Assembly: GCA_964460985.1 (NCBI GenBank)
Contig: CAYWQX010000005.1
Location: 26,987 to 90,986, forward strand
Source of the DNA: an uncultured bacterium
GTDB lineage: Bacteria > Chlamydiota > Chlamydiia > Chlamydiales > Parachlamydiaceae
DNA length: 64,000 nt
Reading direction: 5' to 3'
The translations under genes and the position numbers were made by a program. This document shows positions 5,067 through 61,557 of the stretch, piece by piece. Under the pieces are notes generated by a model. That model did no database searches, was not told where the DNA came from, and saw only the letters and a list, made by a program, of their open reading frames with translations. Numbering within the stretch: position 1 is the first letter of the stretch; each line of letters opens with the position of its first letter.

Positions 5067-6425
5067 TTAAATCCCTGTCATGGATCTTATATAGCTAAGC
5101 GGCCGGCGGATAATATAGTAAAACAGAGAAACGTCTTCGCTATACAAGATAGCGGTTCCTTTGAGTCCGATTTTTAAATCATTATCTGGTTTTTTCCATT
5201 CGGCTTCGGCGATAAAACTGGGCATGTTTTTTTCGCTTAAGGAGGTATAGGTAGAAACATAATCCAGTTGTGCTAGATAAGTTTCGTTAGGACTTACGTT
5301 TAAAACAATTTTCACTTCCGAACCAAGATGAAGATCGAGGTTATCGCTTTCAGGAATCCATATTTTAACTTTAGTGTGTTCAGGATCGCCGATCATCATG
5401 ATCTTTTCACCCACTTGCACCGGATTGCCTCTCCACTCGTCTTTGTTCTTAAGCATGACGATGCCTGCAATCGGTGATTTTACATTGAGTTGGTCCGCTT
5501 TATACTTGGCAAGGTCCAGCATCGCTTTTTCTTTTTTTAGTTTGAGAGATAAAACGGAGTATTCAGCCAGAGATTTTTTGTCTCTAAAGGCAAGCGAGTT
5601 CGCCCGGTTTGCCTCTGCTTGAGCGACGTCTACTTGTCTTTCAGCGACTTTTAATTCATCGAGAGGAACTTTCGAATCATAGGAAAAGAGAAGATCTCCC
5701 TTTTGAACCGTTTGGCCCGGGTTTACTTTGATCTCCTCTATAATTCCTTCAAGAGGGGAGGTGACCATGACCGGATTTTTTGGAACAATCTCGCAAGGAG
5801 CTATAATTCTTAAAGGGATTTGGACAAATAGAAGAGAGATTAAAAGGACTCCGATAGCAATCTTAACCGGTTGGTTGAATAAGTTGGCAAACTGATCTCT
5901 TTTAGCATATTTATTCCAGGCAGCATTATAGTTCTGCATGAGGAAATTTAAGATTTCTACCTCATCATACTGCCACTTGACCCCGTTCCATCGTTCTAGA
6001 AGCATACCCATGACAGGCTCTTCGCTCTCTTTGGAGGGCTGTGTGATCGGAAGCCATACAAATGCCACATGGTCGTGCACGATGCTTTTTTGAAGATCCG
6101 AATCTTCCTGTTCCTTGATTTGGTTGACAGTATCTAGAATCTGAGAATGAGACTTATTTTCGATCCCTCGAATGACCTGTTTCCATTGAGAGGCTAAAAA
6201 CGAGTTAGGATTGACTTGCGCATGTCCCGAGACTCCCAAAAGCTCGGCTTTATCTTTATCCAGCTTCCATAAGGAGGCGCGGTTATAGCGCATAATCTGA
6301 ATCGTATCATTTAAGAAAAGGAAGATAAGCGACGAGCGGTTCGGGCTTGAGTAGGCTTTGAGGCCGAGGCGGTTGATGGCGGCGAGCAAATGGATGGCTT
6401 GACCGGATTTATCGGGAGTAGTCAT
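5067..6425 (-). CDS. HlyD-family periplasmic adaptor with ~170-aa N-terminal cytoplasmic extension
   Basis: Single TM helix (VKIAIGVLLISLLFVQIPL). Lipoyl-like halves SPLEGIIEEIKVNPGQTVQKGDLLF and VKSPIAGIVML flank a coiled-coil segment. 4-nt overlap with the upstream adaptor gene. Confidence 0.75.
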   Translation of the reverse strand: MTTPDKSGQAIHLLAAINRLGLKAYSSPNRSSLIFLFLNDTIQIMRYNRASLWKLDKDKAELLGVSGHAQVNPNSFLASQWKQVIRGIENKSHSQILDTVNQIKEQEDSDLQKSIVHDHVAFVWLPITQPSKESEEPVMGMLLERWNGVKWQYDEVEILNFLMQNYNAAWNKYAKRDQFANLFNQPVKIAIGVLLISLLFVQIPLRIIAPCEIVPKNPVMVTSPLEGIIEEIKVNPGQTVQKGDLLFSYDSKVPLDELKVAERQVDVAQAEANRANSLAFRDKKSLAEYSVLSLKLKKEKAMLDLAKYKADQLNVKSPIAGIVMLKNKDEWRGNPVQVGEKIMMIGDPEHTKVKIWIPESDNLDLHLGSEVKIVLNVSPNETYLAQLDYVSTYTSLSEKNMPSFIAEAEWKKPDNDLKIGLKGTAILYSEDVSLFYYIIRRPLSYIRSMTGI

Positions 6426-8554: not shown

Positions 8555-8603
8555 GAACCCTTGCCTTAAAAATATCCAAAGACTTAACAACGGTATATAA
8601 ATC

Positions 8604-40882: not shown

Positions 40883-42279
40883 AAATCATTCCTCAGCTGA
40901 TAGTGCATAGGGATGCCTAACGCATTATTGATAGCTTCTATAGAGGTCATTAAATTTCCATACTTTTCAAAGGCTGTCATTTCAGCTAAGAAAGCATCCG
41001 TTTTGAATCCTAAGAGATCCCCATCGTGAAACTCTCCTACCTTCTCAATGACTTTAGCATCCGATAATAACTTGGATTGGGCATCGGCATACTCTTTAGC
41101 GAGCTTCCAATTTTCTTCTGCATCGACATAAAGAAGGATAGCTAGCTGCAGCTGAGTGAGCACGCCAAGGGATAAAGCCACCCTATTTTTAATAACCAAT
41201 GTCCTTTGCTCTTCTGCCGTTTTCATATCGTAGTAGGCGGCAGGGATATTAAATAAATTATAAGTGACTTTTAAGCCGGCCTGCAGCCACTTATTGTACA
41301 CAAGAAACTTGTTGCTATCGAAATTGGTAGCTCCATAAAGACCTACGCTGGGAGCCATCAGAAGCGCTTGATTTCTGATCTCCTCGGTAAAGATCTTTTC
41401 TTCTAAGTCACGGCTATAAAGTTCAGGACGATTAAAAAGGGCTGTATCTTGAAGCTCTTCCCATTTGAAAGAAAATTCTCGGGGCATCTCCATCTCTTCA
41501 GGCACCAGTTTAAACGAATCGGCATCTTTAAACCCCATAAACTGGGCGAGCTGATTTTTGGCGGTGACAAAATCGCGGTGGAAGTCTTGAAGCTGAAGTT
41601 TAAGTTTAGAGAGCTGCGCGTCCATCTTCAGGGTTGGAACGGCAGGGATTGTTCCTTTCGTTGCAAAATATCTAAGCTTGTCTTGATATTCATTGATTTT
41701 TCGAATCAACTCCTCTGATTTTTCAACCCCTTTTTGAGCGAGCTGAGCCTTCCAATATGATTTTGTCACTTCCAAAACAACATTCTGGCTAAGTCTTCGG
41801 TATTCTAACTCCGCCATCAGCTCTTTGTTAGCCTCTTGCTTGGCTCGTCCGTAGCTGAGTCCAAAATCGAGTAAGTTCCAGGTATAGGTCAGATTGTAAG
41901 TCAAATCATGCTGCTCAGAGGATATACTGGGGGGAGCGGGCGGTTGATTGGTAAGCGATTGAGAGGAAGAGCCGGTATTGCGATTTCTTCCGTATTGCTC
42001 GCTGTTTAAGATGAGGCTAGGAAGAATTTTCCAGGTTGCGCTGGTAGCCATCTCCTGTTTGATGCGAACCTCTTGCTCTTTGACTTTGAGCTCCAGGTTT
42101 TGCTGTAAGGCAATTTCTATGATGTCATAGTATTTTAATGGTTTTTCGGGGATAGGGGTTCGATCAATTTCGAACGTATCCTCTTCCATTTTTTCGAGCC
42201 TTAAATAATCTCGATGCGGTGTCGCTGTCGGGCAGCAAGCAGTAAGAAATAAGCAGCTGAATATCAAACGGGATTTCAT
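40879..42279 (-). CDS. TolC-family outer membrane channel protein
   Basis: 466 aa. Lipoprotein-like N-terminus (LIFSCLFLTACC). Two-fold internal repeat of long helical segments rich in A/L/Q/E, as in outer membrane efflux proteins. Its stop overlaps the giant ORF start (ATGA). Confidence 0.75.
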   Translation of the reverse strand: MKSRLIFSCLFLTACCPTATPHRDYLRLEKMEEDTFEIDRTPIPEKPLKYYDIIEIALQQNLELKVKEQEVRIKQEMATSATWKILPSLILNSEQYGRNRNTGSSSQSLTNQPPAPPSISSEQHDLTYNLTYTWNLLDFGLSYGRAKQEANKELMAELEYRRLSQNVVLEVTKSYWKAQLAQKGVEKSEELIRKINEYQDKLRYFATKGTIPAVPTLKMDAQLSKLKLQLQDFHRDFVTAKNQLAQFMGFKDADSFKLVPEEMEMPREFSFKWEELQDTALFNRPELYSRDLEEKIFTEEIRNQALLMAPSVGLYGATNFDSNKFLVYNKWLQAGLKVTYNLFNIPAAYYDMKTAEEQRTLVIKNRVALSLGVLTQLQLAILLYVDAEENWKLAKEYADAQSKLLSDAKVIEKVGEFHDGDLLGFKTDAFLAEMTAFEKYGNLMTSIEAINNALGIPMHYQLRNDL

Positions 42280-47771: not shown

Positions 47772-47951
47772 ATGACAAAAGCCCAGCTTCTACAGAAGAT
47801 TGCAAGACTCGAATCGATGAATGACCAGTTAGCCACGGAAGTGGAACATGTGGACCGTCTCATGAAGATGCTTGGATTTTCGGAAGGTCTTAAAAGTGTC
47901 AAATTGACTGCGCAAGAAATCATAGACAATGGATTGATGGAAGAAAATTAA
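47772..47951 (+). CDS. Small (59 aa) helical/coiled-coil protein, missing from the ORF track
   Basis: The ATG is preceded by aaaaGGAGGGctaaatcct. Product: MTKAQLLQKIARLESMNDQLATEVEHVDRLMKMLGFSEGLKSVKLTAQEIIDNGLMEEN, with heptad-like hydrophobic spacing. The overlapping 72-aa minus-strand track ORF has an implausible composition. Confidence 0.55.
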   Translation: MTKAQLLQKIARLESMNDQLATEVEHVDRLMKMLGFSEGLKSVKLTAQEIIDNGLMEEN

Positions 47952-47989
47952 AATTTATTATAGACTATCCCAAGCCAAAAAGGAAGTCT

Positions 47990-48325
47990 ATGACAAATGC
48001 GATTCAATGGGGACCTTACACCACACCTATAGTTGTTAGGGAGGTGTCGGATGGTTTATCGGTCCATCGTCAAAAATTCACTCAAAAAAAATTCAATGTC
48101 GATAGCGAACTTACGATTGAGCAATTTAATAAGCTTTTCAATGAATACAGCCAAATTATTCGTAAGAATGTGGGAAAATCTTTTACCGCGGCTGAAGTAA
48201 ACATCAGAGAGCCTTTGCAGTTTAATGCTCTTTTCAAGACTTTGAATTGTTACCTTGTAACTTATAACCTTGTATTGAAGCGGGAAGGCATGTTCTATCG
48301 AGTAGAGTCTAAGGGTAGCTCATAG
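47990..48325 (+). CDS. Hypothetical protein (111 aa)
   Basis: ATG preceded by aaaGGAAGtct. No recognisable motif. Its 3' end overlaps the convergent TolC-like gene by 17 nt. Confidence 0.45.
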   Translation: MTNAIQWGPYTTPIVVREVSDGLSVHRQKFTQKKFNVDSELTIEQFNKLFNEYSQIIRKNVGKSFTAAEVNIREPLQFNALFKTLNCYLVTYNLVLKREGMFYRVESKGSS

Positions 48326-49871
48326 GATTTGCAAATAAGATCTCCCCGTTGCAGTCATTGGTTGCAATGAGAGTGCCTGTCAAAAAGCGAAGGCGTGCAA
48401 TACCTTGATAGTATTGCCGCCTTAAATCAATCACAGTCAATTTAGCATTTGCGAGCCTTGTCTCAAAATCGAGTAAAAAGAATACGTTTCCGAAGCCCTC
48501 TACAAGCCGTTTAGATTCGTTATCCAAGTTTAACTGGTTTTTTTGGACTGCGATCTCCGCTTCTCTAATTTGTCCAATTAGAGCGATCTGATTATTCAAC
48601 GTTTGCAAGATTTCGGTGGCAGTAGATTGTTTGATCAAGGTTGTTCTTAAGATCGTTTGCGATAAATTAGAGCGCTGCTGCCTTAAAAAACCTTCTGCCT
48701 GGTCATTGTGGAGAGGGAATGAAACCTGCACACCCATGCTTAAGTTCGTGTTGTTATTTTTCCCGTAAAAAGGTGAGCCCGGGTTTACAAAAGCCGGTTG
48801 ATAAAAGGGAGAGATTAAGTAAGAGCTGCTAGAGAGGGTATTCGTACGAGTATTATTGGTTTGAACAGTGCCAAAAAAATCTACCTGAGGAAGGGTTTGG
48901 TTTTCTGCGCCAATCACGAGACTATTAAAAGCTTTCTCTCGATCAAGCGAAGCTAATATATCAAATCTTCGTTCAATCCCAAGATTGACGAGAGGATCTT
49001 TTGCCCCCATGAGTTTGTCTTCAGTTAAAGTCACGGGAGGCAGCACATCTTCTGCTTTAAACGAGAGATCTAAGTTCGCACATTGAGTGGAGGGGGCAAG
49101 TCCAGTGTAGAAGACAAGCTGCCTTTTATTTGAGTATAAAGCGCCTTCTGCATTAATCAGAAACTGTCTTTGCTGAGCGATAGTAGCAAGCGGTTGGTTG
49201 ATATCGGTGGCAGCGATTTCACCCCCCTCAATCAGTTTTCGGACCATTCCGATAATTTTTTCAAGACGCTCGATCGACTCTTTAAGAATACTTACATTTA
49301 ATTCGCTTGCAGCGACATCCCAATAGGTGTTAACGGTGTTTAAGATATCATTTGAGATGCTTTGAAGAGTATCCCATTGGACCGCATTCAGCTCGTGAAA
49401 GGCCGCTTTTTCATACTGGGTGTTATAGCTATTTAAAAAATTTCTTAAAATAGGCTGTGTGACTTGAAAGGTTACTTGCGAAGCTCTTCCGATCCCGGCA
49501 GTCGGGCTTGTAAAGTTTTCGACAAGACCGCTCACATTAAATGAGGTGCCGGCTCTTGTTACTTTTGATAGGGAGCCTTGATAGAGGGAGGCATCCCCGC
49601 TGAATGAGGTAGAGGGAGGGCTTTGATAAAATCGATAAAAATTGTCTTGCAAGCTTTGATCGAAGAGGGGATCAAAAGGGCCTCCCGCTTCTCTTAAGAC
49701 CCCTTCTTGTTTATCAATATCGAGAATGGAGATTTCGACCTGTTTTTGGTTGTTTAATGTACTGATAATAGCATCTCTTAAAGTAATCGGTTGAGGGGAG
49801 TCGGGCAGGGACGCAGAATAAAGAGAGGTAAAACAAATAAACAAGCAAAGTGTACGAGAGAAATAAACCAC
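48309..49871 (-). CDS. TolC-family outer membrane channel protein (last gene of the export operon)
   Basis: 520 aa with a signal-like N-terminus (LCLFICFTSLYSA). Internally duplicated helical/beta architecture typical of outer membrane efflux proteins. Apparent GVG start (GTG at 49871), so the start is uncertain. Confidence 0.7.
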   Translation of the reverse strand: MVYFSRTLCLFICFTSLYSASLPDSPQPITLRDAIISTLNNQKQVEISILDIDKQEGVLREAGGPFDPLFDQSLQDNFYRFYQSPPSTSFSGDASLYQGSLSKVTRAGTSFNVSGLVENFTSPTAGIGRASQVTFQVTQPILRNFLNSYNTQYEKAAFHELNAVQWDTLQSISNDILNTVNTYWDVAASELNVSILKESIERLEKIIGMVRKLIEGGEIAATDINQPLATIAQQRQFLINAEGALYSNKRQLVFYTGLAPSTQCANLDLSFKAEDVLPPVTLTEDKLMGAKDPLVNLGIERRFDILASLDREKAFNSLVIGAENQTLPQVDFFGTVQTNNTRTNTLSSSSYLISPFYQPAFVNPGSPFYGKNNNTNLSMGVQVSFPLHNDQAEGFLRQQRSNLSQTILRTTLIKQSTATEILQTLNNQIALIGQIREAEIAVQKNQLNLDNESKRLVEGFGNVFFLLDFETRLANAKLTVIDLRRQYYQGIARLRFLTGTLIATNDCNGEILFANPMSYP

Positions 49872-51187: not shown

Positions 51188-54016
51188 TTATACTAATTTC
51201 TGCTCCATAATAATCTTGTGGAAAGCCCCCTTTTTCTGAGAGAGTTCCTCGTAAGTCCCTGTTTCAACTACTCGCCGATCTTTTATCACGATAATTTTAT
51301 CCGCTTTTTGAATAGTGCTTAGACGGTGAGCGATGACGACTCTTGTGATATTCATCTGATCAATATTTTTAGTCACGATCTCTTGGGTTTGATTATCGAG
51401 CGCACTTGTTGCCTCATCGAGGAAGAGAATTTTGGGTTTTCCAATGATGGCTTTCGCTAACAGAATCCTTTGTTTTTGGCCCCCTGAAAAAGCTTTTCCG
51501 CCATTGATGAGAAGGGTCTCGAGCTTAGTGGGGAGAAGTTTTAAATCTTCTCCAAATCCGGCAAAAATAAGAGCGTTTAGAATCTCTTCATCGGAATAAT
51601 AACTGCCTCCCATAATGTTGTCTCGAAGTGAGGCGCCTAGGATTTTTGAATCCTGTAAAACCGATCCGATTTGTTGCCTAAGTTTTTTCGGATCGAGCGT
51701 ATTCAAGTCTTTCCCATCATAATAAATGGCTCCTTTGACCGGCTTCTCAAAACCTAAAAGCAGTTTAAGCAAAGTTGATTTACCGCTTCCGGATGCCCCT
51801 ACAATCGCGACGAACTCACGAGGCTCGATTGTGATGTTGATATTATCCAAGATGAAAGGGCTCTCTTTTTCATATTGGAAAGAGAGATTATTGATCTCGA
51901 TTTTACCGGTTAGAGATCCGGGATCGATTTTGTCGTCAGTCCATTCGGGGGTTTCTTGAAAAATAACTTCGCTTCTCTTCCATAAAGCGCCTGTATAGCT
52001 TAGAAATAAGAGGATATTCAAAAAGGAAAAATAGGACTGTATGAACATGCCAAAAGCAGTCAAAAAGCCTGTGAAATCTCCAAAATTAAAAGACTCTGAT
52101 TTGATATCGATTTTCCATAGTATCCAGACCATGAGGATAAATGCCCCCCCATACATGACGCTCCAGTTGATAGCGTTCACAAAATCTTGAATTTTTGCGA
52201 CCCTCCATTGAAGAGAGGTCATTTTTTGGAAATCTTTTTCCCAGAGGACAAAGCTTAAAAACTCTTTTCCGGCGGTCCTGATTTTTGAGATCGAATTAAG
52301 GATTTGGTAGACATAGGTATTAATTTCGCTTCGATAGTGATACACATCGATCCAACAAGCGTAGGAAATTCTTAATACAATGAGAGTCGTGAGAGTAAGG
52401 ATCACTACCACACCCACCGTGATCCAAGCGAGCGAGTGATTAAAATAAAACATGGGTATAAGGAACAAGAGGGAGAAAATCCCTTCAATCAGCCCTCTTA
52501 AATTTGGGCCCACAATAATTTTTTGAATATTGTCAAACCCAAGCGACCTTATAACCAAATCACCGATTTCAAAACGTTTAAAAAAGCGGATGGGAAGATC
52601 CAAAATTCTCTGGAAAATGGCAAGCTGAAGATTATGCTGGGAGACGGTATTAATTCTTAAAAATAGATATTCATTCACGAATTTGAAGGCAAGAATAGCA
52701 CTAATTGCAATCAGGTAGGCACTTGCTATCTGATAGAGGAAAAGATAATCGTTATTGGGAATAACTAAATTGTAAACGAGTTTAGTGGCGAAGGGCAAAA
52801 AGAGATTCAAAACAGCTACGAGAATAGCGATATAAAAGGCTGAGTTCAAATTTTTAAGCTGTCCTTCTAGCGAAAATGAGATGATTTTTAGAAAGCTTAA
52901 AGAAGCTGTCCTCGGAAGGTTTTTATAAAAGATAAAGGCTCTTTTATCGATCCTTGAAGGATCGATATCCTTTACAGGAGTTACTTTTTGAGTCTCCACA
53001 TCGAAGGCTTTATACTCGCCGTTGATAAAAAGAAGCGCTATGGGTTTTTCATCCACTGCCCCTAATAAAGGCCCTAGGTCATTTGAAAACCAACCCTCTT
53101 TGAGATTAATCAATCGGTAGTAGATGCCGTAATGATTAGAGATTTGTTGGATATCTTTCTGAACGTGAGATGAAGATTCAAAGGTTGAATTTTTATCGAT
53201 AAAATAAATGCCGGCTCTTTTCCAAATCAATTTTAAAGTGCTTAGAAGATAATTCTGGGATTTGACTTCGCTTGATAAAATAGCGTTTTCTTCTAATACT
53301 TGAGCCAGTTCGTCAAGAGCCTTCTCAAACTGATTTTCAGTCAATTTTTTTTCTTTAAGGAATTTAGCGAGAGAATCTTTTTGTTTTTCACGTATCCTTA
53401 AGGGAATAAAATGGCCTAAAATAGAGTTGAGCTGTTTTAAGCCCTCAGTGATTTTATGGGAGGAGAGATTTTTTAACGTCTCAATGCGTAGAGATTTTGA
53501 GCTTTCATTTTTGATCCAAAAGGAGTGATGAACAGGAAAAAAAATGGCCGGCTTTATTCTTAAATCGTTTACGCCAAAAAGGACTAACCCCTCCTGGTCT
53601 GTTTTTATCCATTTCAATCCGCTCCTATCATCTCCCTTACGAGACTCGGCTGTATCGCCTATTGCAAGTTCAAAAGATTCTTCGGCAATTATATGGGAAG
53701 GAAAATCGAGTCCTTCAGGATAAAATTCGTTAAAACTTTCGATCCAATCATATATTTGAGGCTCGACCGTATTAAAATCTAATTCAGGGGTTTCTAATTC
53801 CGTATCTTCGATGGCTATAAGCAATAATGAAAAGGGCGATTCATGAAAATCAAAGGGGAAAAAGATATCTCCCTTTCGAACAGTTTTGATGTATGTCAAT
53901 GCGGGTAAATTGGGATCAGAGGAGGCGATATATAAATTGCAAGATCCTTTCTTTAACGAGTATATTTTTTGAAAAGGACTTAAAGTAAAACGTGAATTAA
54001 TTGAAAGGTGAGTCAT
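51188..54016 (-). CDS. ABC exporter permease/ATPase with ~390-aa N-terminal extension and no peptidase domain; resembles the second ABC subunit of NHLP/NHLM-type bacteriocin exporters
   Basis: 942 aa. Six-TM exporter core, Walker A GASGSGKST, signature FSGGQKQRILLA, Walker B ILFLDEATSALD. ATGA overlap with the upstream C39-ABC gene. The subfamily call rests on architecture and gene order only. Confidence 0.75.
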   Translation of the reverse strand: MTHLSINSRFTLSPFQKIYSLKKGSCNLYIASSDPNLPALTYIKTVRKGDIFFPFDFHESPFSLLLIAIEDTELETPELDFNTVEPQIYDWIESFNEFYPEGLDFPSHIIAEESFELAIGDTAESRKGDDRSGLKWIKTDQEGLVLFGVNDLRIKPAIFFPVHHSFWIKNESSKSLRIETLKNLSSHKITEGLKQLNSILGHFIPLRIREKQKDSLAKFLKEKKLTENQFEKALDELAQVLEENAILSSEVKSQNYLLSTLKLIWKRAGIYFIDKNSTFESSSHVQKDIQQISNHYGIYYRLINLKEGWFSNDLGPLLGAVDEKPIALLFINGEYKAFDVETQKVTPVKDIDPSRIDKRAFIFYKNLPRTASLSFLKIISFSLEGQLKNLNSAFYIAILVAVLNLFLPFATKLVYNLVIPNNDYLFLYQIASAYLIAISAILAFKFVNEYLFLRINTVSQHNLQLAIFQRILDLPIRFFKRFEIGDLVIRSLGFDNIQKIIVGPNLRGLIEGIFSLLFLIPMFYFNHSLAWITVGVVVILTLTTLIVLRISYACWIDVYHYRSEINTYVYQILNSISKIRTAGKEFLSFVLWEKDFQKMTSLQWRVAKIQDFVNAINWSVMYGGAFILMVWILWKIDIKSESFNFGDFTGFLTAFGMFIQSYFSFLNILLFLSYTGALWKRSEVIFQETPEWTDDKIDPGSLTGKIEINNLSFQYEKESPFILDNINITIEPREFVAIVGASGSGKSTLLKLLLGFEKPVKGAIYYDGKDLNTLDPKKLRQQIGSVLQDSKILGASLRDNIMGGSYYSDEEILNALIFAGFGEDLKLLPTKLETLLINGGKAFSGGQKQRILLAKAIIGKPKILFLDEATSALDNQTQEIVTKNIDQMNITRVVIAHRLSTIQKADKIIVIKDRRVVETGTYEELSQKKGAFHKIIMEQKLV

Positions 54017-56217
54017 GTAATACTCCCTTTTTGTATTTCCTTTTCAAGCTCAACAAATTTTCTATAAATGCTTTCCCCCATCATCAGTTCTTGAGGCGAG
54101 CCCATTTCAATAATTTCTCCATTTTCAAGAACAAAGATCTTATCGCACAATTTAGTTGAGCTTAAGCGGTGGGCAACCACTAAAAGGGTAAATCCCTTTT
54201 TTCTCAAATTATGAATAATAGAAGACTCCGATTCAGAGTCGACATTGGATAGGGCTTCATCGATAATTACAATGCTAGGCTCTTTAGCAAAAATTCTTGC
54301 TATCTCTACTTTTTGTCTTTGACCGCCGCTTAAATTGCTTCCACCTTGCAAAATCATTGCGTCATACCCATGCGTTCGTTGGAGAATTTCGGTGTGAAGG
54401 CAAGCTTCTTTTGCGGCCTTCACAATAGTTTCCTGGCTTAGCGTTGGATCGAAAAAGGCGATATTTTCTTTAAAGGTATCGCTATAAAGAAGCACCTCTT
54501 GCTCGGCAACCCCTAAAGAACGGATAATGAGATCGCGGGGAAGATTATTTTTAGGTATGCCGTCAAAAAGTATTTCGCCCTCCCAAGGCTCTAGTAAACC
54601 GCAAATTAATTTGACTAAAGTCGATTTGCCGGAAGCGGTGAATCCTACAAGACCTACCATCTCTCCCGGTTGAATGGTCATATTAATATTTTTTAAGATG
54701 GGATCGGCTTCCTTGTCGTAACCGAAGGTGAGATTTCTTATTTCTATCCTACCTTTAAGCTTAGCCCCCTGGTAGTCATTATGTTCTTCCTGTAAGAGAA
54801 AGCTTTTGTCGATATTATTTTTCAAAACATCATTTATTCGGTTGATGTCCACTCTTATGAGTTCAGCCACGCTGTTGAAATTAACTAAGCGAATGACGGG
54901 CGCTGTAAAAAAATTCATGAGAAGAATCATGGCAAAAAGCATTCCTAATGAAAGGTCGCCCGACATGACCCTTTCAGCCCCTAAAAATAAGACTATACCG
55001 CTTGTAAACAATTGCAGAAAATAGGGGATAGTCCCCGCTAAAATATCTTTTTGAGCCGCTTCCTTAGAGGCGTTTAAGTTTCTTGTGTAGTGGCCTGCCC
55101 AGTAGCTGAAAATTTTATTTTCAGAGTTGGAGGCTTTAATTGTTTCTATACTATCCAGGAGGTTGTATGTCTCACCTATCACCCTCGAAAAGGTCTGCTG
55201 GTAGATGTTATAGGCATTTAGCTTCACTTTGAAAAGATATCTTAATAAAAGTAGGTTGATCACGAGAAATAAAATCCCGATATTCGCGATCAAAGGATCG
55301 TAGTAAAACATGATCGCTGCGAAAGCGATCGACAAAATGGCATCGACTACAAGGCCTGTGAGCTGGGTTGTGATACCTACAGAGACGTTTTCATTGATTT
55401 GAAGACGATTTGTGATCTCTCCGCTATATCTTTGAAGATAGAATTCATAGGGGAGGCGTAATATATGCCATAAAAATTGGGTTGAAAGGTACGTTGTAAG
55501 AAAAATCTGCACCCGCGATAAAATTCTTTGTTCGAGAAATTTCAGTCCTACCATCAAACCAAAAAACAAAAGGGCAAAGAGGATAAACTCCTCCTGCCAG
55601 TGGTCGATTCGATTGATTAAAAAATTATCGATAAAAACTTGCGTCATTAAGGGAACCAACAAGAGGGGAGCCATCAAGATAAAATTGATAATGAAAGTGG
55701 CGATGAATGGTTTTTTAGCCCTTTCGAATATGGTGAGAAAGGAATTAATGATGGTAGTTTTTTGGCCGGACGGGGTAAAATCGAGCGATTTTTCAAATAA
55801 TATGACCAACCCTGAATAAGATTTTTTAAAATCTTCATAGGAGATGCTTATCTGTCCAATCGAGGGATCCATGATAAAGACACTCTCTTTTGAAAACCCT
55901 TCAATAACCACAAAATGGTTCATATTCCAGTAAGCGATGAACGGGAGCGGCAAATCATAAAGATCTTTTAACTCTACCTCATGCGCTTCAGTCAAAAGGC
56001 CGTACTGATTTGCTACATTAGTAATTCCAAAAACGCTTGCCCCTTCCCTCGTAACGTTGCACTCTTTTCTTATCTGTTCTAAAGGAAAGAATTTGCCGTG
56101 ATACTCAAAAATACTTAAGAGGCAGGCAGCGCCGCATTCCACCGCCTCCATCTGCATGACAGTGGGGACCTCCCGTCTTGAAAATTTGGAAGCTTTAGGA
56201 ATGCTAGTTTCATTCAT
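54013..56217 (-). CDS. ABC exporter with N-terminal C39 cysteine peptidase domain (bacteriocin/double-glycine-peptide processing type)
   Basis: The C39 catalytic set is intact: QMEAVECGAACL (Gln, Cys), NHFVVIEG (His), IMDPS (Asp). Then a six-TM core, Walker A GFTASGKST, signature LSGGQRQKVEIA, Walker B IVIIDEALSNVD. 734 aa. Confidence 0.88.
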   Translation of the reverse strand: MNETSIPKASKFSRREVPTVMQMEAVECGAACLLSIFEYHGKFFPLEQIRKECNVTREGASVFGITNVANQYGLLTEAHEVELKDLYDLPLPFIAYWNMNHFVVIEGFSKESVFIMDPSIGQISISYEDFKKSYSGLVILFEKSLDFTPSGQKTTIINSFLTIFERAKKPFIATFIINFILMAPLLLVPLMTQVFIDNFLINRIDHWQEEFILFALLFFGLMVGLKFLEQRILSRVQIFLTTYLSTQFLWHILRLPYEFYLQRYSGEITNRLQINENVSVGITTQLTGLVVDAILSIAFAAIMFYYDPLIANIGILFLVINLLLLRYLFKVKLNAYNIYQQTFSRVIGETYNLLDSIETIKASNSENKIFSYWAGHYTRNLNASKEAAQKDILAGTIPYFLQLFTSGIVLFLGAERVMSGDLSLGMLFAMILLMNFFTAPVIRLVNFNSVAELIRVDINRINDVLKNNIDKSFLLQEEHNDYQGAKLKGRIEIRNLTFGYDKEADPILKNINMTIQPGEMVGLVGFTASGKSTLVKLICGLLEPWEGEILFDGIPKNNLPRDLIIRSLGVAEQEVLLYSDTFKENIAFFDPTLSQETIVKAAKEACLHTEILQRTHGYDAMILQGGSNLSGGQRQKVEIARIFAKEPSIVIIDEALSNVDSESESSIIHNLRKKGFTLLVVAHRLSSTKLCDKIFVLENGEIIEMGSPQELMMGESIYRKFVELEKEIQKGSIT

Positions 56218-57436
56218 GCGTATCTTTTGGCCATTTCAAATTGTCGATAGGAATCAGATAGTAAAGAGGTCTTGCCTGTTCAATAACCGCCTCTACATCA
56301 CCCACAGTCCCTTTAGAAATCAATACGTTTGGCTCGTTTCCTGAACTCCACAAAAATAAATGAGGATTTTGCGGATCTTGCAGAGGCTTGATGAGAGCTT
56401 CTATAACGGCAGGTTGATTATTCATCAGGTAAGATACGACCATTTTATTCTGGATTCGATTGATGACGTTTGTCTCGGACACTGCATACTGAGATATTTG
56501 ATCAACTCTTCCAAGAATACCCCCATAAATATTCTCGTTTACGGTTTTGACTCGCATGATCGCAAGATCGCCGAGTTGTATCTTTTTGCCGGTCTGGATA
56601 GGAAAATAGGCTAAAATGAGAGGCTGAAAATTCTTTTGAGAATCTACTTCAAGCCAAACCAATGAGTCGCCCGGAGAGACGATTTGCCCTTCAAATGTTT
56701 TAAGCTCTAAAACTCTTCCTGATTCAGGGCTTACAATTTGAGTTTGCTTTTGAGCAATTAGGAGTAAATCTAAATTCTCTTTCTCTTTCCTGACCTCTTC
56801 TTCTTTTTGAATAATCTCCTGCGTCCGATACTCTCTTTGTTCTTCAGCAATTAATTCTGAAAGTTCCCCTTTTTTGGTTTCTAAATCGACTTTTTTCAAA
56901 ACAAAATCTTGCTCTTCGCTCCGATAAATTTTTTGGCTAATCAAGCCTTCTTCAAGAAGCTTTTGATGTTTTTCTAAAATGAGATTGTAAGAAGCAATAT
57001 TCTTCTCCAATTCGCGGATGTTAAATTCAGTCGACTTAATTTTTGTTTGAAGGGCTTGTCTTTCGGCGGTGTATTCTCGACGTATTCTATCTTGTAGATT
57101 TTTGAGCTCTTCACTCAGGTTATTTAAACGTTTTTCTGAGGCGGAAATTTTTAGCTGTAATTCAGGATCTTCAATTTTCATTAAAAGATCGCCGCTTTTC
57201 ACTAAATCGCCCTGTTCTACGAAAATTTCTTTCAAGGTTCCTTTTACAGGAGACTGAATGTCTTTAAGACCGGACTCGTTGATTAGAATACCTCTTCCGT
57301 CAATAGAGACTGCAATCGTTCCGAAAATACTCCAGAGGACAACACCTAATATCAAAAGGAATGAGATCGCAAATCCAATTTGAATGGGAAGACTTAAAAT
57401 TTTTATGTCTTTCAGCGAATCGACATCTTTTTTCAT
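56210..57436 (-). CDS. HlyD-family secretion adaptor (first copy in the operon)
   Basis: TM helix (IQIGFAISFLLILGVVLWSIFGTIAV). Lipoyl-like GTLKEIFVEQGDLVKSGDLLMKIED and IVSPESGRVLEL around a long coiled coil. The track start (57448) is a GTG. The ATG at 57436 forms an ATGA overlap with the upstream stop, so I prefer it. Confidence 0.8.
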   Translation of the reverse strand: MKKDVDSLKDIKILSLPIQIGFAISFLLILGVVLWSIFGTIAVSIDGRGILINESGLKDIQSPVKGTLKEIFVEQGDLVKSGDLLMKIEDPELQLKISASEKRLNNLSEELKNLQDRIRREYTAERQALQTKIKSTEFNIRELEKNIASYNLILEKHQKLLEEGLISQKIYRSEEQDFVLKKVDLETKKGELSELIAEEQREYRTQEIIQKEEEVRKEKENLDLLLIAQKQTQIVSPESGRVLELKTFEGQIVSPGDSLVWLEVDSQKNFQPLILAYFPIQTGKKIQLGDLAIMRVKTVNENIYGGILGRVDQISQYAVSETNVINRIQNKMVVSYLMNNQPAVIEALIKPLQDPQNPHLFLWSSGNEPNVLISKGTVGDVEAVIEQARPLYYLIPIDNLKWPKDTHE

Positions 57437-58533
57437 ATGATATGCCACATTTTTGCAAAGAAAAGAGCAAAGAAGTGCACGAATATCACCCCCGATAAAT
57501 TGGGGGCCTTATTAAAAATCCAGGTAAGCAGGAAATTTAATGATAAACTCAAAAATAAAAGCATAGGAGCTATTGGATGTATATGGATCGCCGGCATGAA
57601 TACGGAAAAAATAGAGGTCATGGCAATCGCTTGGAGGTTTTTATGAGAGCCTAAAAAAATTGTTATTTTTTTTAAAAAAAATCCTCGAAGAACTAATTCA
57701 AACAAAATGACATAAGGAACTAAGCCGATAAACCAAAGAACATGAGAGGACTCTTCTTTTGACCCATAGATAAATGAAAACAAATACAAACAGGGGAGTA
57801 TAACTATCAAAGATCTCGCCGCAAGATTCATTGATTTCCAAAAATTATCTGATTCAAATCCCGTTTGATCCCAAAATAAAAGGAGCCGTTCTTTGAAAAG
57901 AAACAAGATAGCGCCTAGGGATAGCCAGTAGATAAAATTGAATAAACCGGTAGAAAGAGAATGAAAGCCACTTAATAATATATAAAGTGTAATGTTTAAC
58001 AAAAAAGCCAAGCCGATAAACTCGCAGAGTGTGTGTCCTGTTTGAAACGTAGTTTCTAGTTTTTCAGTCGCCTGTCTTGAGGAATAAATGTACTTCTCGC
58101 TTGTTTCAACGACTCTTTGATTGGATAAAATGGCAATATTTTCTAAAAGTTTCTGATAGACATTTTTTAGTCGCTCACTCTTTTTTAACACGTCAGGCTG
58201 AAGAGAATAGACCGTTGTCTCTTTTAGGGTTTCAATCGTAGAGGTGCGTGGAGTTTGATTGATGAAGGCGATTTCTCCAAAAGCATTGCCTTCTTCGATA
58301 TGTCCCAAAGTATAAGTAAAATGGTGGCTCGGATCCCATTTAAGAATTTTGACAGAACCTTTCACAATAAAAAACAGATCGGACGATCCTTGGTCTCCCT
58401 CTTCAAAGATATAATCTAACGCATCGAATTTACAGCGCTTTAAATAAGGAATTATTAGATCAAAGTCTTCTTCCGTAAAATTGGAGAAAAGAGGCTGCTT
58501 TTTTAGCTCTCCCACATCGGTATTCTCGTCCAA
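57433..58533 (-). CDS. Cyclic-nucleotide-binding domain fused to a polytopic membrane domain (weakly CPBP/Abi-like)
   Basis: The N-terminal cNMP-binding fold ends in GNAFGEIAFINQTPRTSTIET (FGE...R-T-[AS] phosphate-binding cassette). About 6 TM helices follow, with LFELVLRGFF, FMPAIHIH and VHFFALFF loosely recalling CPBP motifs ExxxR / FxxxH / Hxxx. There is no in-frame ATG before the domain. Apparent TTG start at 58533, one codon after an in-frame stop, with GAGAG upstream. Confidence 0.7.
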   Translation of the reverse strand: MDENTDVGELKKQPLFSNFTEEDFDLIIPYLKRCKFDALDYIFEEGDQGSSDLFFIVKGSVKILKWDPSHHFTYTLGHIEEGNAFGEIAFINQTPRTSTIETLKETTVYSLQPDVLKKSERLKNVYQKLLENIAILSNQRVVETSEKYIYSSRQATEKLETTFQTGHTLCEFIGLAFLLNITLYILLSGFHSLSTGLFNFIYWLSLGAILFLFKERLLLFWDQTGFESDNFWKSMNLAARSLIVILPCLYLFSFIYGSKEESSHVLWFIGLVPYVILFELVLRGFFLKKITIFLGSHKNLQAIAMTSIFSVFMPAIHIHPIAPMLLFLSLSLNFLLTWIFNKAPNLSGVIFVHFFALFFAKMWHII

Positions 58534-58709
58534 GGCTTACATCTCTCAGAACATAGGTTTACCTATATGTAACTTATAGTTAAATTTTAAGAAATTATTT
58601 AAAAAAGGAATTTTTAGAAGATGTACGAACGACTTAACAAAACATGGAATAGTATTACTACTGATTGTTGATAAATAGATGAGGAATCATGAAAGTTAGC
58701 TCGCTTCAA

Positions 58710-58796
58710 TTACATTGGCCATGTTAAGCCGCCGCCGCCAAATCGATTCGCTCCACCTTTAGATGATTTTTTGGACTTATTAGGATTTTTTTTCAT
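58710..58796 (-). CDS. Precursor peptide P1 (28 aa): MKKNPNKSKKSSKGG-ANRFGGGGLTWPM
   Basis: Read manually from the reverse complement. Same length, start and stop geometry as P2 and P3. Lys-rich leader ending KGG, core ending WPM-stop. The RBS is degenerate (ttGAGc). Lies 177 nt upstream of the exporter operon on the same strand. Confidence 0.65.
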   Translation of the reverse strand: MKKNPNKSKKSSKGGANRFGGGGLTWPM

Positions 58797-58843
58797 TGTT
58801 TTTAAGCTCAATATTTATAGGATCTTGTAATAAAAATTTAAGC

Positions 58844-58876
58844 CCATAATAAAACAAATTTTTTGTTTTATTATGG
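58844..58876 (-). terminator. AT-rich hairpin downstream of P2 (ccataataaaac / gttttattatgg), weak terminator or attenuator
   Basis: Perfect 12-bp inverted repeat, extendable to 15 bp through aaa/ttt. On the minus-strand RNA it is followed by gcuuaaauuuuua. A paralogous copy follows P3. Confidence 0.4.
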
Positions 58877-58921
58877 AATATTATTAAAGGTTAAGAATAG
58901 ATCGATTCTAAGGAGCATGAA

Positions 58922-59008
58922 TCACATAGGCCATGTAAAACTGCCACCGCCAAATCGAGTCGTTCCACCTTTTAAATTTTTTTTGGATTTATTTGGGACT
59001 CTTTTCAT
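58922..59008 (-). CDS. Precursor peptide P2 (28 aa): MKRVPNKSKKNLKGG-TTRFGGGSFTWPM
   Basis: ATG immediately preceded by an in-frame TAA. AAGGAG lies ~14 nt upstream. Synonymous differences from P1 and P3 at several codons (CCA/CCT, AAA/AAG, GGT/GGC/GGA) indicate selection on this frame. Confidence 0.7.
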   Translation of the reverse strand: MKRVPNKSKKNLKGGTTRFGGGSFTWPM

Positions 59009-59047
59009 TTATTTTTTTGTTTCTCCTTAACTAGGTAGACACTAATT

Positions 59048-59076
59048 ATTAAAATATATTTTTTATTTTAAATCAA
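59048..59076 (-). promoter_or_regulatory. Putative sigma70-like promoter for P2 (TTGATT-N17-TTTAAT on the minus strand)
   Basis: -35 is aatcaa at 59071-59076 (plus strand) and -10 is attaaa at 59048-59053, with 17-nt spacing. It lies ~40 nt upstream of the P2 ATG. The same geometry is conserved upstream of P3. The AT-rich context makes chance matches easy. Confidence 0.3.
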
Positions 59077-59195
59077 TAGTTTAATATTTTTTTTAAAAAA
59101 ATAGTATTATTAAAGATTTTATTAAAAAAATCGCTTGTAAGCATTTTAAAGCTTAATGTTTCTTAAATTGTGTTGATAATGGCGTGTTGTAAGGA
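59068..59195 (-). pseudogene. Decayed duplicate of the 3' end of the SNF2 helicase gene (about 42 codons)
   Basis: 59023-59195 aligns by eye with 59434-59613 (offset ~414 nt), including the ...IKLLI-stop codons. The copy reads L**YYFFKKNIKLLI*, so it contains stops and indels. Confidence 0.6.
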
Positions 59196-59257
59196 AATGA
59201 CAATCTTTTTTTTGAATTTTTGGGATAGGTTAAAAGAAAGTTAAATCAAAAAAAGAG

Positions 59258-59288
59258 CCATAATAAAACTAAATTTGTTTTATTATGG
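59258..59288 (-). terminator. AT-rich hairpin plus U-run downstream of P3, intrinsic-terminator-like
   Basis: ccataataaaac (59258-59269) / gttttattatgg (59277-59288). On the minus-strand RNA it is followed by cucuuuuuuug (a run of 7 U). Confidence 0.5.
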
Positions 59289-59335
59289 ATTTGTTATTAA
59301 AAAGATGATTGCTTATTATGTGTAAGACGCCAGTC

Positions 59336-59422
59336 TTACATAGGCCAAATAAGTCGGCGTCCTCCCACCACAAATACTCCACCTTTTAAGTTTTTCTTAG
59401 ATTTGTTAGAAGCTCTTTTCAT
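59336..59422 (-). CDS. Precursor peptide P3 (28 aa): MKRASNKSKKNLKGG-VFVVGGRRLIWPM
   Basis: AAGGAG lies ~11 nt upstream of the ATG. Identical length and an identical KGG ... WPM-stop frame to P1 and P2. The stop codon is embedded in an 8-bp hairpin, tgtaagac-gcca-gtcttaca (59321-59340). Confidence 0.7.
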   Translation of the reverse strand: MKRASNKSKKNLKGGVFVVGGRRLIWPM

Positions 59423-59458
59423 TTTTTTTGTGCTCCTTAGTTAGATAGGACATATATT

Positions 59459-59487
59459 ATTAAAATATAATTTTTATTTTAAATCAA
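59459..59487 (-). promoter_or_regulatory. Putative sigma70-like promoter for P3, overlapping the last codons of the helicase gene
   Basis: aatcaa at 59482-59487 and attaaa at 59459-59464 (plus strand) give TTGATT-N17-TTTAAT on the minus strand. Paralogous to the element upstream of P2. Confidence 0.3.
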
Positions 59488-61557
59488 TAATTTAATACTA
59501 TCTTTCTCTATAAAGTCTGTATTAGTAAAGATTTTATTAAAAATATCGCTTTTATGTCTTTTTAAAAGCTCAATTTTTTCTTCAATCGTGTTGATTGTGA
59601 CGTACCGCCTCACAAAAACGGGCTCTTTTCTTCCCATCCGATGCGACCTTGAAATGGCCTGGTTTTCTACCGCCTCATTCCACCATGGGTCTATTAAAAG
59701 GATTTGATCGGCCCGAGTTAAATTAAGTCCGACTCCGCCTGCCTTCAAAGACATTAAAAGAAGAGGTTTGGACTCATCTTCCTGAAAGGAGTCGAGGATT
59801 TCCTGCCGATTTTTGGTCTCTCCGTCAAAATACAGAGCCCCCTCTAGTTTTTCTCGAATGAGCATCAAAAATCGGGTAAATTGGCTAAACACGATGATTT
59901 TTTGTTTTTCAGCGAGCAAGGTGTGAATATCGTTTAAAATAAGATCCATTTTGCTGCTTTCCACATCCAACCCGATCATTTTAGGATGGCAAGCGACTTG
60001 CCTTAAACGTAAAATGAGCTCGAGAATTTGAAGGGGGTTTTGAGTTTCTTCTAAGTCCTCTTTGGTTGTTTCAAGAAGCTTCAAATAAGCTTCCTCTTGC
60101 TTTGGAGACATCTCCACAAAAAGGGTTTTGTCGATTCTTTCAGGCAGATCTTTTAAAACTTGGGACTTCAGTCTTCGTAAGGTGTAAGGGGCGATTTTGT
60201 TTTTGATCTCTCCCAGCTCGTCAGAGGAGTCTATCAAATCGGGCAGAAGAAATTTGAAGTGCGTTTTTAACTCATCCAAATTGTTTTCAATGGGAGTTCC
60301 GGTCATTAGCAGCTTAAACTTTGTTTTGAGGGACTGGATCGCTTGAAAGGTTTGGGATCTTGAATTTTTCATCATTTGGGCTTCATCGACAATAATTGCC
60401 TCCCAATTAAAGGATTGAAAAAGGGCAAGATCACGTCTGACAATAGCGTAGGAGGTAATGATGATCTCTTTATTAAAATGAGGAGAGCGATCTAATCCAT
60501 GGTAGACCACAAACCCAAGGTCCGAAAAGCGCTCTATTTCCCTTTGCCAGTTAATAAGAAGAGAGGTGGGAGCGACAATGAGGATGGGACCCTTCAATTG
60601 GGAGAGAAAGGCGATCGTCTGGACTGTTTTTCCAAGCCCCATATCATCTGCCAAAAGCCCTGAAAAGCCTTTTTCATAGAGGTATGATAGCCAGTTTAAT
60701 CCCTCTTTTTGATAGGGCCTAAGATCTCCTTTAAAAGAGGGTGCCGAAGTTTCTGGAGGGTTAAATTTATCGAGAACAAGCCCTGCATTTAATTTGGGAA
60801 GAACCAGTTTTCCCTCTTTTTTTACTCCTTTTTTAAGAAGGGGGTGGTACTTAAAATCATCGGGCAATAGAGGAACTTTGCCCGATTCAAGTTGAAGGGG
60901 TCTAGAGATATCAAGGGTCTCATCGCCAAAAGAGAGCGAGCCCGTGACCTCCACTTGATCTTGAATGGAGACGTTAATGGAAGTGTGGGTGAGGGGAATC
61001 ACCTCTTTTTCCTGAGGGTTTAAGATCACCCAACCCTCTTTTTTCAGGTGCTCGGTGGTTTTAAAAACGTCTGGTTTTTTGCAGTAATAGTGATAGGCTT
61101 TTTTCTGGTAGCCTATTTTAAGAAGCTCTCCTTCAAAAGCAGGAGTGAGAAGCTCGACGGTCATTCCATAAGGATCGAGCCATTTGATTCGGGGGGCCTC
61201 TTTGGGAATTTCGCCGAGCACAATGACAGGGTATTCGTCGATCAGTTCTTTTAAAGTGGAAAGATCGATCTCTTTCGGACAAGATTTGACAAGGGAGTAG
61301 GGGGCAAAAGTCTCGATAAAATAGAGGCTCACCCCTTTGATAATTCCAAGAGGGGGTCCTTGAAAGAGATGATCTACCTCCTGAATCTCTTTACCGTTCA
61401 CAGTAAAAAAATAGCTCAGGAGGATCTTCTCTTTTTCTATTTCAGCTACAAAGGTGAGGCTATGGCGTCCAAACAGGTCGGCAACAATCCTCTTTCCTTT
61501 AAAGGATAGGGTCGTAAATTGCTTTTTAGCTTCATCAGGGGTAATATTGAAATTCAT
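59479..61557 (-). CDS. SNF2-family (RapA/HepA-like) DEAD/H-box helicase
   Basis: LLADDMGLGKT (motif I), IVDEAQMMKN (DExx box), LLMTGTPIENN (motif III). The C-terminal helicase domain carries GGVGLNLTRADQILLIDPWWN and QAISRSHRMGR. 692 aa. Confidence 0.88.
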   Translation of the reverse strand: MNFNITPDEAKKQFTTLSFKGKRIVADLFGRHSLTFVAEIEKEKILLSYFFTVNGKEIQEVDHLFQGPPLGIIKGVSLYFIETFAPYSLVKSCPKEIDLSTLKELIDEYPVIVLGEIPKEAPRIKWLDPYGMTVELLTPAFEGELLKIGYQKKAYHYYCKKPDVFKTTEHLKKEGWVILNPQEKEVIPLTHTSINVSIQDQVEVTGSLSFGDETLDISRPLQLESGKVPLLPDDFKYHPLLKKGVKKEGKLVLPKLNAGLVLDKFNPPETSAPSFKGDLRPYQKEGLNWLSYLYEKGFSGLLADDMGLGKTVQTIAFLSQLKGPILIVAPTSLLINWQREIERFSDLGFVVYHGLDRSPHFNKEIIITSYAIVRRDLALFQSFNWEAIIVDEAQMMKNSRSQTFQAIQSLKTKFKLLMTGTPIENNLDELKTHFKFLLPDLIDSSDELGEIKNKIAPYTLRRLKSQVLKDLPERIDKTLFVEMSPKQEEAYLKLLETTKEDLEETQNPLQILELILRLRQVACHPKMIGLDVESSKMDLILNDIHTLLAEKQKIIVFSQFTRFLMLIREKLEGALYFDGETKNRQEILDSFQEDESKPLLLMSLKAGGVGLNLTRADQILLIDPWWNEAVENQAISRSHRMGRKEPVFVRRYVTINTIEEKIELLKRHKSDIFNKIFTNTDFIEKDSIKLLI

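Follow-up and report, generated by a model that had tools for sequence, protein, structure and literature searches.

The stretch of DNA analysed here, hereafter the window, comprises 64,000 nucleotides of contig CAYWQX010000005.1 from an uncultured bacterium of the Parachlamydiaceae, and holds three tandem open reading frames (ORFs) of 28 codons each, named P1, P2 and P3, between a gene for an SNF2 helicase and an operon for a peptide exporter. The observation of the three ORFs is confirmed, and the sequence tests make it highly probable that they are real translated genes. We give about an even chance to the proposal that they encode young, tandemly expanding precursor peptides with a non-canonical, cationic double-glycine signal, which would be exported as 13-residue products by the adjacent NHLP-type PCAT, an ATP-binding cassette (ABC) transporter that contains a peptidase. 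As a whole, the system may be regarded as a lineage-specific variant of the PCAT-associated double-glycine peptides, for which export is plausible.

Each of the three genes consists of 84 nt plus a stop codon, that is, 87 nt:

59336-59422, minus strand: P3 gene, MKRASNKSKKNLKGGVFVVGGRRLIWPM, 28 codons plus TAA

58922-59008, minus strand: P2 gene, MKRVPNKSKKNLKGGTTRFGGGSFTWPM, 28 codons plus TGA

58710-58796, minus strand: P1 gene, MKKNPNKSKKSSKGGANRFGGGGLTWPM, 28 codons plus TAA

These positions, the strand, the length and the translations are all as given in an earlier reading of this DNA from its letters (the original prediction), which had also placed the ORFs in a gap of about 950 bp; measured from the stop of the SNF2 gene (59479) to the first operon gene (58533), this gap has 945 nt and holds P1-P3. 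The P1 gene starts with ATG, with a TTG-extended alternative of 33 residues beginning at 58811, and the in-frame stop codon described before the ATG of P2 is present, being a TAA immediately upstream of it. The pattern common to the three products is M-K…N-K-S-K-K-x-x-K-G-G-x4-G-G-x4-W-P-M-stop, in which 15 of the 28 positions are invariant (M1, K2, N6, K7, S8, K9, K10, K13, G14, G15, G20, G21, W26, P27 and M28). When back-translated into DNA, the pattern KKxxKGG-x10-WPM-stop has three matches in the window, against an expectation of 0.00 from dinucleotide shuffles.

The claim that P1-P3 are genes was borne out by the counts of substitutions between paralogs, by simulation, by the comparison of reading frames and by orthologs in a sister strain. 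In pairs, the window copies differ at 18-32 of 84 nt (about 21-37%), with zero indels in the ORFs and indels in the flanks. The proportions of synonymous and non-synonymous differences (pS/pN, Nei-Gojobori) are 0.39/0.17 for P1-P2, 0.72/0.28 for P1-P3 and 0.67/0.21 for P2-P3, and over the first 15 codons P2 and P3 are separated by six synonymous and two non-synonymous changes. In each of the three pairs of window paralogs, no other of the six frames has as few amino-acid differences as the sense frame. Under a simulation of random substitutions, amino-acid changes as few as those found occurred at P = 0.011, 0.0002 and 0.0006 in the three pairs, the ORF stayed intact in 5-17% of the trials, and the joint probability of an intact ORF with so few changes was at most 0.004. 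Start and stop codons keep the same positions across five sequences, namely the three of the window and the P2 and P3 of the sister strain, with three different stop codons in use. Conservation follows the layout of a precursor peptide: the N-terminal 15 residues are conserved, with 11 counted as invariant, and residues 16-25 are variable, to the extent that codons 16-25 of P2 and P3 differ at 18 of 30 nt and are nearly randomised, with non-coding flanks 78-86% identical. As for the opposite strand, whose frames had been described as not conserved between the copies, it does hold that the antisense changes more than the sense; however, one antisense frame is free of stop codons across the 87 nt of every copy. 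This frame accumulates more amino-acid changes than the sense frame, lacks a start codon in P1 and P3, and holds a start-to-stop ORF of at least 20 residues over P2 only, and antisense coding was rejected because of the excess of changes and the absent start codons.

The N-terminus resembles a double-glycine leader in several respects. Gly14 and Gly15 are invariant in the five sequences, their position lies within the range of 13-25 residues of Gly-Gly leaders, and the length of 15 residues is that of the signals of class II microcins (MccV-type) and bacteroidetocins. The leader is strongly cationic and Lys-rich, with no acidic residues; counted back from the Gly-Gly site, all copies have Met at -15, and at -12 P2 has Val, P3 has Ala and P1 has Asn.

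The neighbouring genes, all encoded on the same strand as the peptides, are the following:

59479-61557, minus strand: SNF2 helicase gene

57433-58533, minus strand: first operon gene, with a cyclic nucleotide monophosphate (cNMP)-binding domain and a multi-pass CPBP/Rce1-like membrane domain

56210-57448, minus strand: HlyD adaptor of the NHLP type (TIGR03794, 205 bits, above cut-off)

54013-56217, minus strand: C39-ABC transporter (PCAT), best match TIGR03796

51188-54016, minus strand: second ABC permease/ATPase, without peptidase, best match TIGR03797

49957-51186, minus strand: second HlyD adaptor (TIGR03794, 167 bits)

48309-49871, minus strand: TolC-like outer-membrane efflux protein

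The peptide genes are thus placed upstream of a complete operon of PCAT, ABC, two HlyD and TolC components, with 177 nt between P1 and the operon, and the PCAT gene itself begins 2.5 kb downstream of them. Both HlyD adaptors exceed the TIGR03794 cut-off of 156 bits, whereas the C39-ABC protein scores 756 bits against a TIGR03796 cut-off of 853 and the second ABC protein 651 against a TIGR03797 cut-off of 709, these being their best matches by far. The C39 domain aligns with LahT150 (6mpz) at E = 1.3e-32 and has conserved counterparts of Gln21, Cys27, His101 and Asp117, so that the intact peptidase that had been recognised from its Cys, His and Asp is upheld, with the Gln in addition. The nearest named homologues of the C39-ABC protein, among the matches listed, are cyanobacterial NHLP exporters at 38-40% identity. 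Its ortholog in the nearest lineage with the locus (loci L031 to L036) is 65% identical by BLASTP; among the matches listed by a word-indexed protein search, which is non-exhaustive and did not list this ortholog, nothing fell between 100% and 51%. The net charge of the C39 domain, considered as a sign of adaptation to a cationic leader, proved uninformative, with the same value of -7 in the window and in L031, which has no peptide genes.

The first operon gene has a weak match to TIGR03896, and the Rce1-like/CPBP assignment of its membrane domain comes from the 45% identical ortholog at L031:6259-7362 (29 bits). The CPBP motifs EExxxR, FxxxH and HxxxN appear degenerate in both proteins. With this 45% identity to L031, the gene is one of the two fastest-diverging in the locus, where most others lie at 52-88% and orf111 at 42%. 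Proteins of the CPBP family are often cited as bacteriocin immunity factors. Apart from this degenerate CPBP/Rce1-like domain, the earlier remark that no maturation enzyme is encoded nearby is correct. Further observations on the operon concern the second ABC protein, which has an N-terminal extension of about 255 residues (53252-54016) that lies outside TIGR03797 and has no Pfam match at E = 5, and the plus strand at 47772-48325, where ORFs of 59 and 111 residues converge on the end of the TolC-like gene. Both are syntenic in L031 (88% and 42%, respectively); the 111-residue product has no Pfam domain, and neither product has a double-glycine leader. The GC content of positions 52000-60000, which cover the exporter operon and the peptide region, is 0.33-0.40, compared with 0.41-0.47 in the rest of the window, and the operon is still syntenic in L031.

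The space around the peptide genes contains the following elements, where L037 and L043 denote loci of the sister strain:

59459-59487, minus strand: promoter-like site of P3 (TTGATT at 59482-59487, 17 nt, TTTAAT at 59459-59464), found by eye

59433-59438, minus strand: Shine-Dalgarno-like AAGGAG of P3, 10 nt before the ATG

59258-59288, minus strand: intrinsic terminator hairpin 3' of P3, then a T-run, with the stem kept in L043

59088-59150, minus strand: relic copy of the SNF2 3' end, 63 nt, 78% identical to 59503-59565

59048-59076, minus strand: promoter-like site of P2 (TTGATT at 59071-59076, 17 nt, TTTAAT at 59048-59053), kept in L037 and L043

59023-59028, minus strand: AAGGAG of P2, 14 nt before the ATG

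58843-58877, minus strand: intrinsic terminator hairpin 3' of P2, a stem of 15-16 bp, then a T-rich tail

58534-58629, minus strand: 5' leader of the operon, 97% identical between strains

A scan with a promoter consensus returned overlapping sites for both genes (59483-59456 for P3 and 59072-59045 for P2). The -35 element of P3 overlaps the final codons of the SNF2 gene, and its promoter-like block is 86% identical to the P2 copy. The terminators are long A/U-rich hairpins placed about 45 nt past the stop codons, and they dominate the predicted folds (z = -4.1 for P3 and -3.3 for P2). By these predicted elements, P3 and P2 are autonomous units, each with a sigma-70-like promoter, an AAGGAG (which had been reported for these two genes), an ORF and a strong intrinsic terminator. 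Tandem duplication of the P3 unit, at a period of about 414 nt, gave rise to the P2 unit, which took the relic of the SNF2 3' end with it, so that P3 is the older copy; the relic is better preserved in the sister strain (L043:382-450). P1 sits 47 nt past the P2 terminator; a promoter-like site, a Shine-Dalgarno site and a terminator are all missing from it, and it is the only one of the three without a terminator between itself and the operon. The 177 nt that follow it are not significantly structured (z = -0.04), and the operon leader shares a motif with L031 that was recognised by eye ('taag-tacat-ta-ggt…ttctgagag'). The peptide genes had been said to head the exporter operon, and they do lie directly 5' of it on the same strand; however, the expression is overstated, because P3 and P2 each have their own promoter-like site and terminator, and the operon has a 5' leader of its own.

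A sister strain, recovered from Logan assemblies of SRR277782xx runs, is 96.97% identical to the window over 11.2 kb of the operon. Its contig L043, which extends 831 nt upstream of the operon, contains two cassettes, compared with three in the window. The L043 ortholog of P3 has an identical protein, with two synonymous changes (aag>aaa and gga>ggg) and no non-synonymous one, and the P2 ortholog shows N6D, one synonymous change and TGA>TAG; both frames are kept without frameshift, in agreement with what had been expected of orthologous loci if the ORFs were genes. Between the strains, identity in the P2 unit is high over the promoter, the Shine-Dalgarno site and the ORF, drops abruptly once the stop codon is passed and is high again in the terminator stem. 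The sister-strain P2 unit carries a P3-like 3' spacer, and P1 was found in neither L037 nor L043, so that cassettes are gained, lost and recombined between strains.

Outside this pair of strains, no relative of the peptides came to light. P1-P3 have no match in Pfam (E<=10) or NCBIfam (E<=0.1), and a profile of the three peptides run against 1.84 billion protein representatives gave no match, not even P1-P3 themselves, a search that is low-powered because the peptide ORFs have evidently not been gene-called. The KKxxKGG-x10-WPM-stop DNA pattern was without match in the JGI metagenomes, where the leader pattern gave one chance match (L042) in a gene that reads like a phage holin. A DNA pattern scan of IMG/VR had no match, tblastn of P2 and P3 against plasmids and phages found nothing significant, and a six-frame search of 42 fetched loci with a hidden Markov model returned only the window copies and those of the sister strain. 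The original prediction had recognised no described family, which is what the Pfam, NCBIfam, protein library, metagenome, virus, plasmid and phage searches also returned: among the collections searched, the peptide family is an orphan limited to one species-level lineage. An exact-protein look-up gave no record for the SNF2 protein or for a 360-residue version of the first operon gene. A scan of GTDB genomes with the C39-ABC protein found only unrelated ABC transporters of at most 34% identity, and the source lineage therefore lacks a close GTDB representative. The PheT protein of the window shares 53-59% identity with its named matches, which come from Parachlamydiaceae and further Chlamydiia, and the source is an uncultured environmental chlamydia. 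Among the titles and abstracts that literature searches listed, none linked such exported peptides to Chlamydiae.

Several described systems come close to this one in part. The window exporter genes have as best matches TIGR03794, TIGR03796 and TIGR03797, which form the three-gene NHLP/Nif11 transport cassette known from cyanobacterial bacteriocin clusters (PMC3140520), and the cNMP-binding accessory protein is likewise a feature of cyanobacterial NHLP loci. However, both ABC proteins fall below the curated equivalog cut-offs, the cassette is extended by a second HlyD and by a TolC-like protein, and the cNMP domain is joined in one protein to a CPBP-like membrane domain. NHLP/Nif11 leaders are acidic, helical and about 70-80 residues long, whereas the window peptides have only 28 residues in all and nothing in common with them, and no modification enzyme is encoded at the window locus, contrary to those systems.

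A second resemblance is to the class II microcins and bacteroidetocins, the double-glycine peptides of Gram-negative bacteria that are exported by a PCAT, a membrane fusion protein and TolC (PMC12219008). As in these, the window signal has 15 residues and ends in Gly-Gly, the peptides are apparently unmodified, Gly-rich and free of Cys, the operon encodes a C39-ABC, two HlyD and an outer-membrane efflux (OEP/TolC-like) protein, and duplicated precursor genes stand beside the exporter together with a membrane protein that is a candidate for immunity. Contrary to them, the predicted mature peptides have 13 residues and about 1.4 kDa instead of 5-10 kDa, and the signal carries a strong positive charge, has Lys at -7 and lacks acidic residues. 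The microcin expression M…Rx[IL]x9G[GAS] is not matched exactly, P2 having K-R-V in place of R-x-[IL], and the host is a chlamydia, a phylum not linked to class II microcin-type peptides in the titles and abstracts that literature searches listed. A third likeness, in the form of variable cores, a conserved leader and a cassette content that differs between strains, is to the Gram-positive double-glycine pheromones ComC/ComAB, BlpC/BlpAB and RtgG/RtgAB (PMC7018657, PMC7595303). Here the differences are the lack of a histidine kinase, response regulator or Rgg-type receptor encoded near the window peptides, a Gram-negative envelope with a TolC component, and the absence of sequence similarity. 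Mature peptides of 13 residues are within the size range of peptide pheromones.

In the proposed reading, P1 would owe its transcription to read-through out of the P2 unit, and, since no terminator follows it, such a transcript would continue into the exporter operon. The first 15 residues, rich in Lys and closed by K-G-G, would act as a non-canonical double-glycine export signal, to be removed after Gly15 by the C39 domain of the PCAT (54013-56217). The ABC pair, together with the HlyD adaptors and the TolC-like protein, would then carry the 13-residue products ANRFGGGGLTWPM, TTRFGGGSFTWPM and VFVVGGRRLIWPM out of the cell. There they could act as small bacteriocin-like or signalling peptides, in which the variable centre would set the specificity, and activity or recognition would require the invariant G-G and W-P-M. 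The likely immunity or sensing partner would be the cNMP-binding/CPBP-like membrane protein, which evolves fast. A more far-reaching version, which we hold tentatively and consider doubtful on balance, is that these are the first ribosomal exported peptides, be it bacteriocins or cell-cell signals, described in Chlamydiae: a young family of unmodified 13-mers with a new cationic 15-residue signal, accepted by the peptidase despite Lys at -7, and with WPM as a recognition motif. The WPM terminus (aromatic-x-hydrophobic-COOH) might then be the target of a receptor, of a PDZ-type domain or of the co-encoded cNMP-gated CPBP-like membrane protein, and the family would have arisen or been captured after the split from the nearest sampled relative, with its copy number still changing between strains.

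A number of findings weigh against export, beginning with the leader itself. The closest solved homologue of the window C39 domain is LahT150, an AMS protease domain (6mpz), which needs only the last 13 residues of the leader and whose substrates need hydrophobic residues at -4, -7 and -12 (PMC6363468). There, Lys or Asp abolishes cleavage at -4 and has a strong negative effect at -7, and most substitutions of Leu-12, Lys included, significantly impair it, since a hydrophobic groove accommodates these side chains (PMC6363468). None of P1-P3 has hydrophobic residues at all three positions: -7 is Lys in all copies, and P1 has, in addition to Asn at -12, Ser at -4, where P2 and P3 have Leu. An exception to the rule is known in the RtgAB PCAT, for which secretion is independent of hydrophobic -15, -12, -7 and -4 positions (PMC7018657, PMC7595303). 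For these reasons, the Lys that every copy has at -7 and the residues of P1 at -4 and -12, cleavage after Gly15 is not a safe assignment; it would be the best available placement of the cut, and we regard the call as evenly balanced. Of the earlier claim of a Gly-Gly leader, the invariant Gly14-Gly15, the length and the adjacent intact PCAT speak in favour, and the residues just named against. The genetic context adds to these doubts. The strong terminators are predicted to insulate P3 and P2 transcriptionally from the operon, and P1, with neither promoter nor Shine-Dalgarno site, is absent from the sister strain. The L031-L036 lineage keeps the full gene order (major facilitator superfamily protein, 269-residue ORF, SNF2, cNMP/CPBP, HlyD, C39-ABC, second ABC, HlyD, TolC and two small ORFs), with proteins 42% to 88% identical to those of the window; yet its gap between SNF2 and the operon is of 117 nt and holds no peptide ORF. 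Three further exporter loci (C39-ABC 46-51% identical), which have the same exporter genes, in the same order in two of the three, are also without a peptide homologue. Since L031 keeps the whole operon without a peptide gene, the exporter is older than the peptides and not dependent on them; it must, by this comparison, have or have had other substrates, and the peptides would be a recent, lineage-specific addition to an ancestral exporter locus. Their confinement to a single species-level lineage leaves them without deep comparative support. On one contig of 273 kb, a group II intron-type reverse transcriptase (RVT_1 plus GIIM, L039:18303-19760) is encoded just past a related exporter operon.

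The same findings feed the main rival explanation, which we consider rather unlikely, namely that P1-P3 are real small proteins but not exporter substrates: uncleaved basic 28-mers, for example cytoplasmic or membrane-associated, that either landed in the intergenic site behind the SNF2 gene, a permissive one, or originated there de novo, and have the PCAT as a coincidental neighbour. An exporter that is ancestral and complete without peptides in L031 and the three further loci, a leader that breaks the -7 requirement of LahT150 and in P1 also those at -4 and -12, the predicted promoters and terminators of P3 and P2, and an operon 5' leader conserved between strains would all fit such an origin. 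On the other hand, a conserved leader with a variable core, the invariant Gly-Gly and the 15-residue length resemble PCAT substrates, the place directly upstream on the same strand is typical of precursor genes, and no other candidate substrate was found close by, as a regular-expression scan for ORFs with canonical double-glycine leaders around the exporters of the window, L031 and L039-L041 hit only stretches within larger genes, all of them spurious. It is also conceivable, even though very unlikely, that the peptides are PCAT substrates cut after Gly20-Gly21, which would release the heptapeptides GGLTWPM, GSFTWPM and RRLIWPM, in the size range of short pheromones. Gly20-Gly21 is as invariant as Gly14-Gly15, and WPM would then make up nearly half of the product; however, with Arg, Arg or Val at -4, Gly at -7 and Lys at -12 the fit to a C39 peptidase would be even poorer, and residues 16-19, then part of the leader, are among the most variable.

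The two remaining explanations are both poorly supported. In one of them, which we judge highly unlikely, P1-P3 would be cis-regulatory upstream ORFs, encoding attenuator or ribosome-arrest peptides whose stalling at W-P-M-stop tunes the read-through of terminators into the operon. Known arrest peptides such as TnaC repeatedly have Trp and Pro close to the C-terminus, the residues right before the stop codon are invariant here, and a terminator follows each of P3 and P2. However, these terminators begin about 45 nt past the stop codon and the folds contain no competing anti-terminator pairing, whereas P1, the nearest to the operon, has no terminator and is followed by unstructured sequence; the attenuator idea was rejected on these grounds. 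Nor would a leader peptide be expected in three diverged tandem copies whose N-terminus is conserved and whose middle is hypervariable, and the operon of the relative L031 works without such an ORF. The other explanation, to which we attach an equally small probability, takes the region for repeats that do not code for protein (small RNA genes, for instance, or promoter-terminator modules that were duplicated), in which ORFs have appeared by accident of an A-rich and G-rich sequence. It would account for the AT-richness of the region (33% GC), for the stop-free antisense frame, and for the facts that P1-P3 were not called by the gene caller behind the public collection and that the protein library has no match to them. 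It sits badly with the synonymous bias in the sense frame only, with starts and stops at the same positions in five sequences that use three stop codons, with a conservation boundary located exactly at the stop codon, and with an antisense frame devoid of start codons in P1 and P3. Nor was a known non-coding element found: the covariance models of Rfam 15 gave no match at the gathering threshold in the window except one tRNA, and none at E<=1 over 58400-59700.

Elsewhere in the window, a single ORF of 10,030 codons occupies positions 10790-40882 of the minus strand. Bacterial cadherin-like and Big_9 repeats crowd the first and last 2,500 residues of its product, a DUF4347 domain lies near the N-terminus, and the ORF is flanked by three HlyD-like genes on one side, one of them fused to a peptidase M50, and by an OEP/TolC-like gene on the other (5067-10739 and 40879-42279). 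The locus looks like that of a giant repeat adhesin with its own secretion apparatus.

Were the peptides not exported, the finding would reduce to an orphan family of small proteins. The locus is a clean example of the birth and expansion of a very small gene family, with a tandem duplication that took part of the adjacent gene with it, a core that is hypervariable, and gain or loss at the level of strains. Genes of this size were overlooked when the collection was gene-called, and its protein library contains nothing that matches them. Tools that mine genomes for double-glycine peptides depend on the rule of hydrophobic residues at -4, -7 and -12; if a leader with Lys at -7 proved functional, this rule would not be general within the NHLP/LahT branch of C39 peptidases, and the recognition code known for these enzymes would be broadened. 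To our knowledge no peptide bacteriocin or pheromone is known for environmental chlamydiae, which live inside host cells as obligate symbionts; an exported peptide family, if true, would point to competition or communication among symbionts that share a host cell or vacuole.

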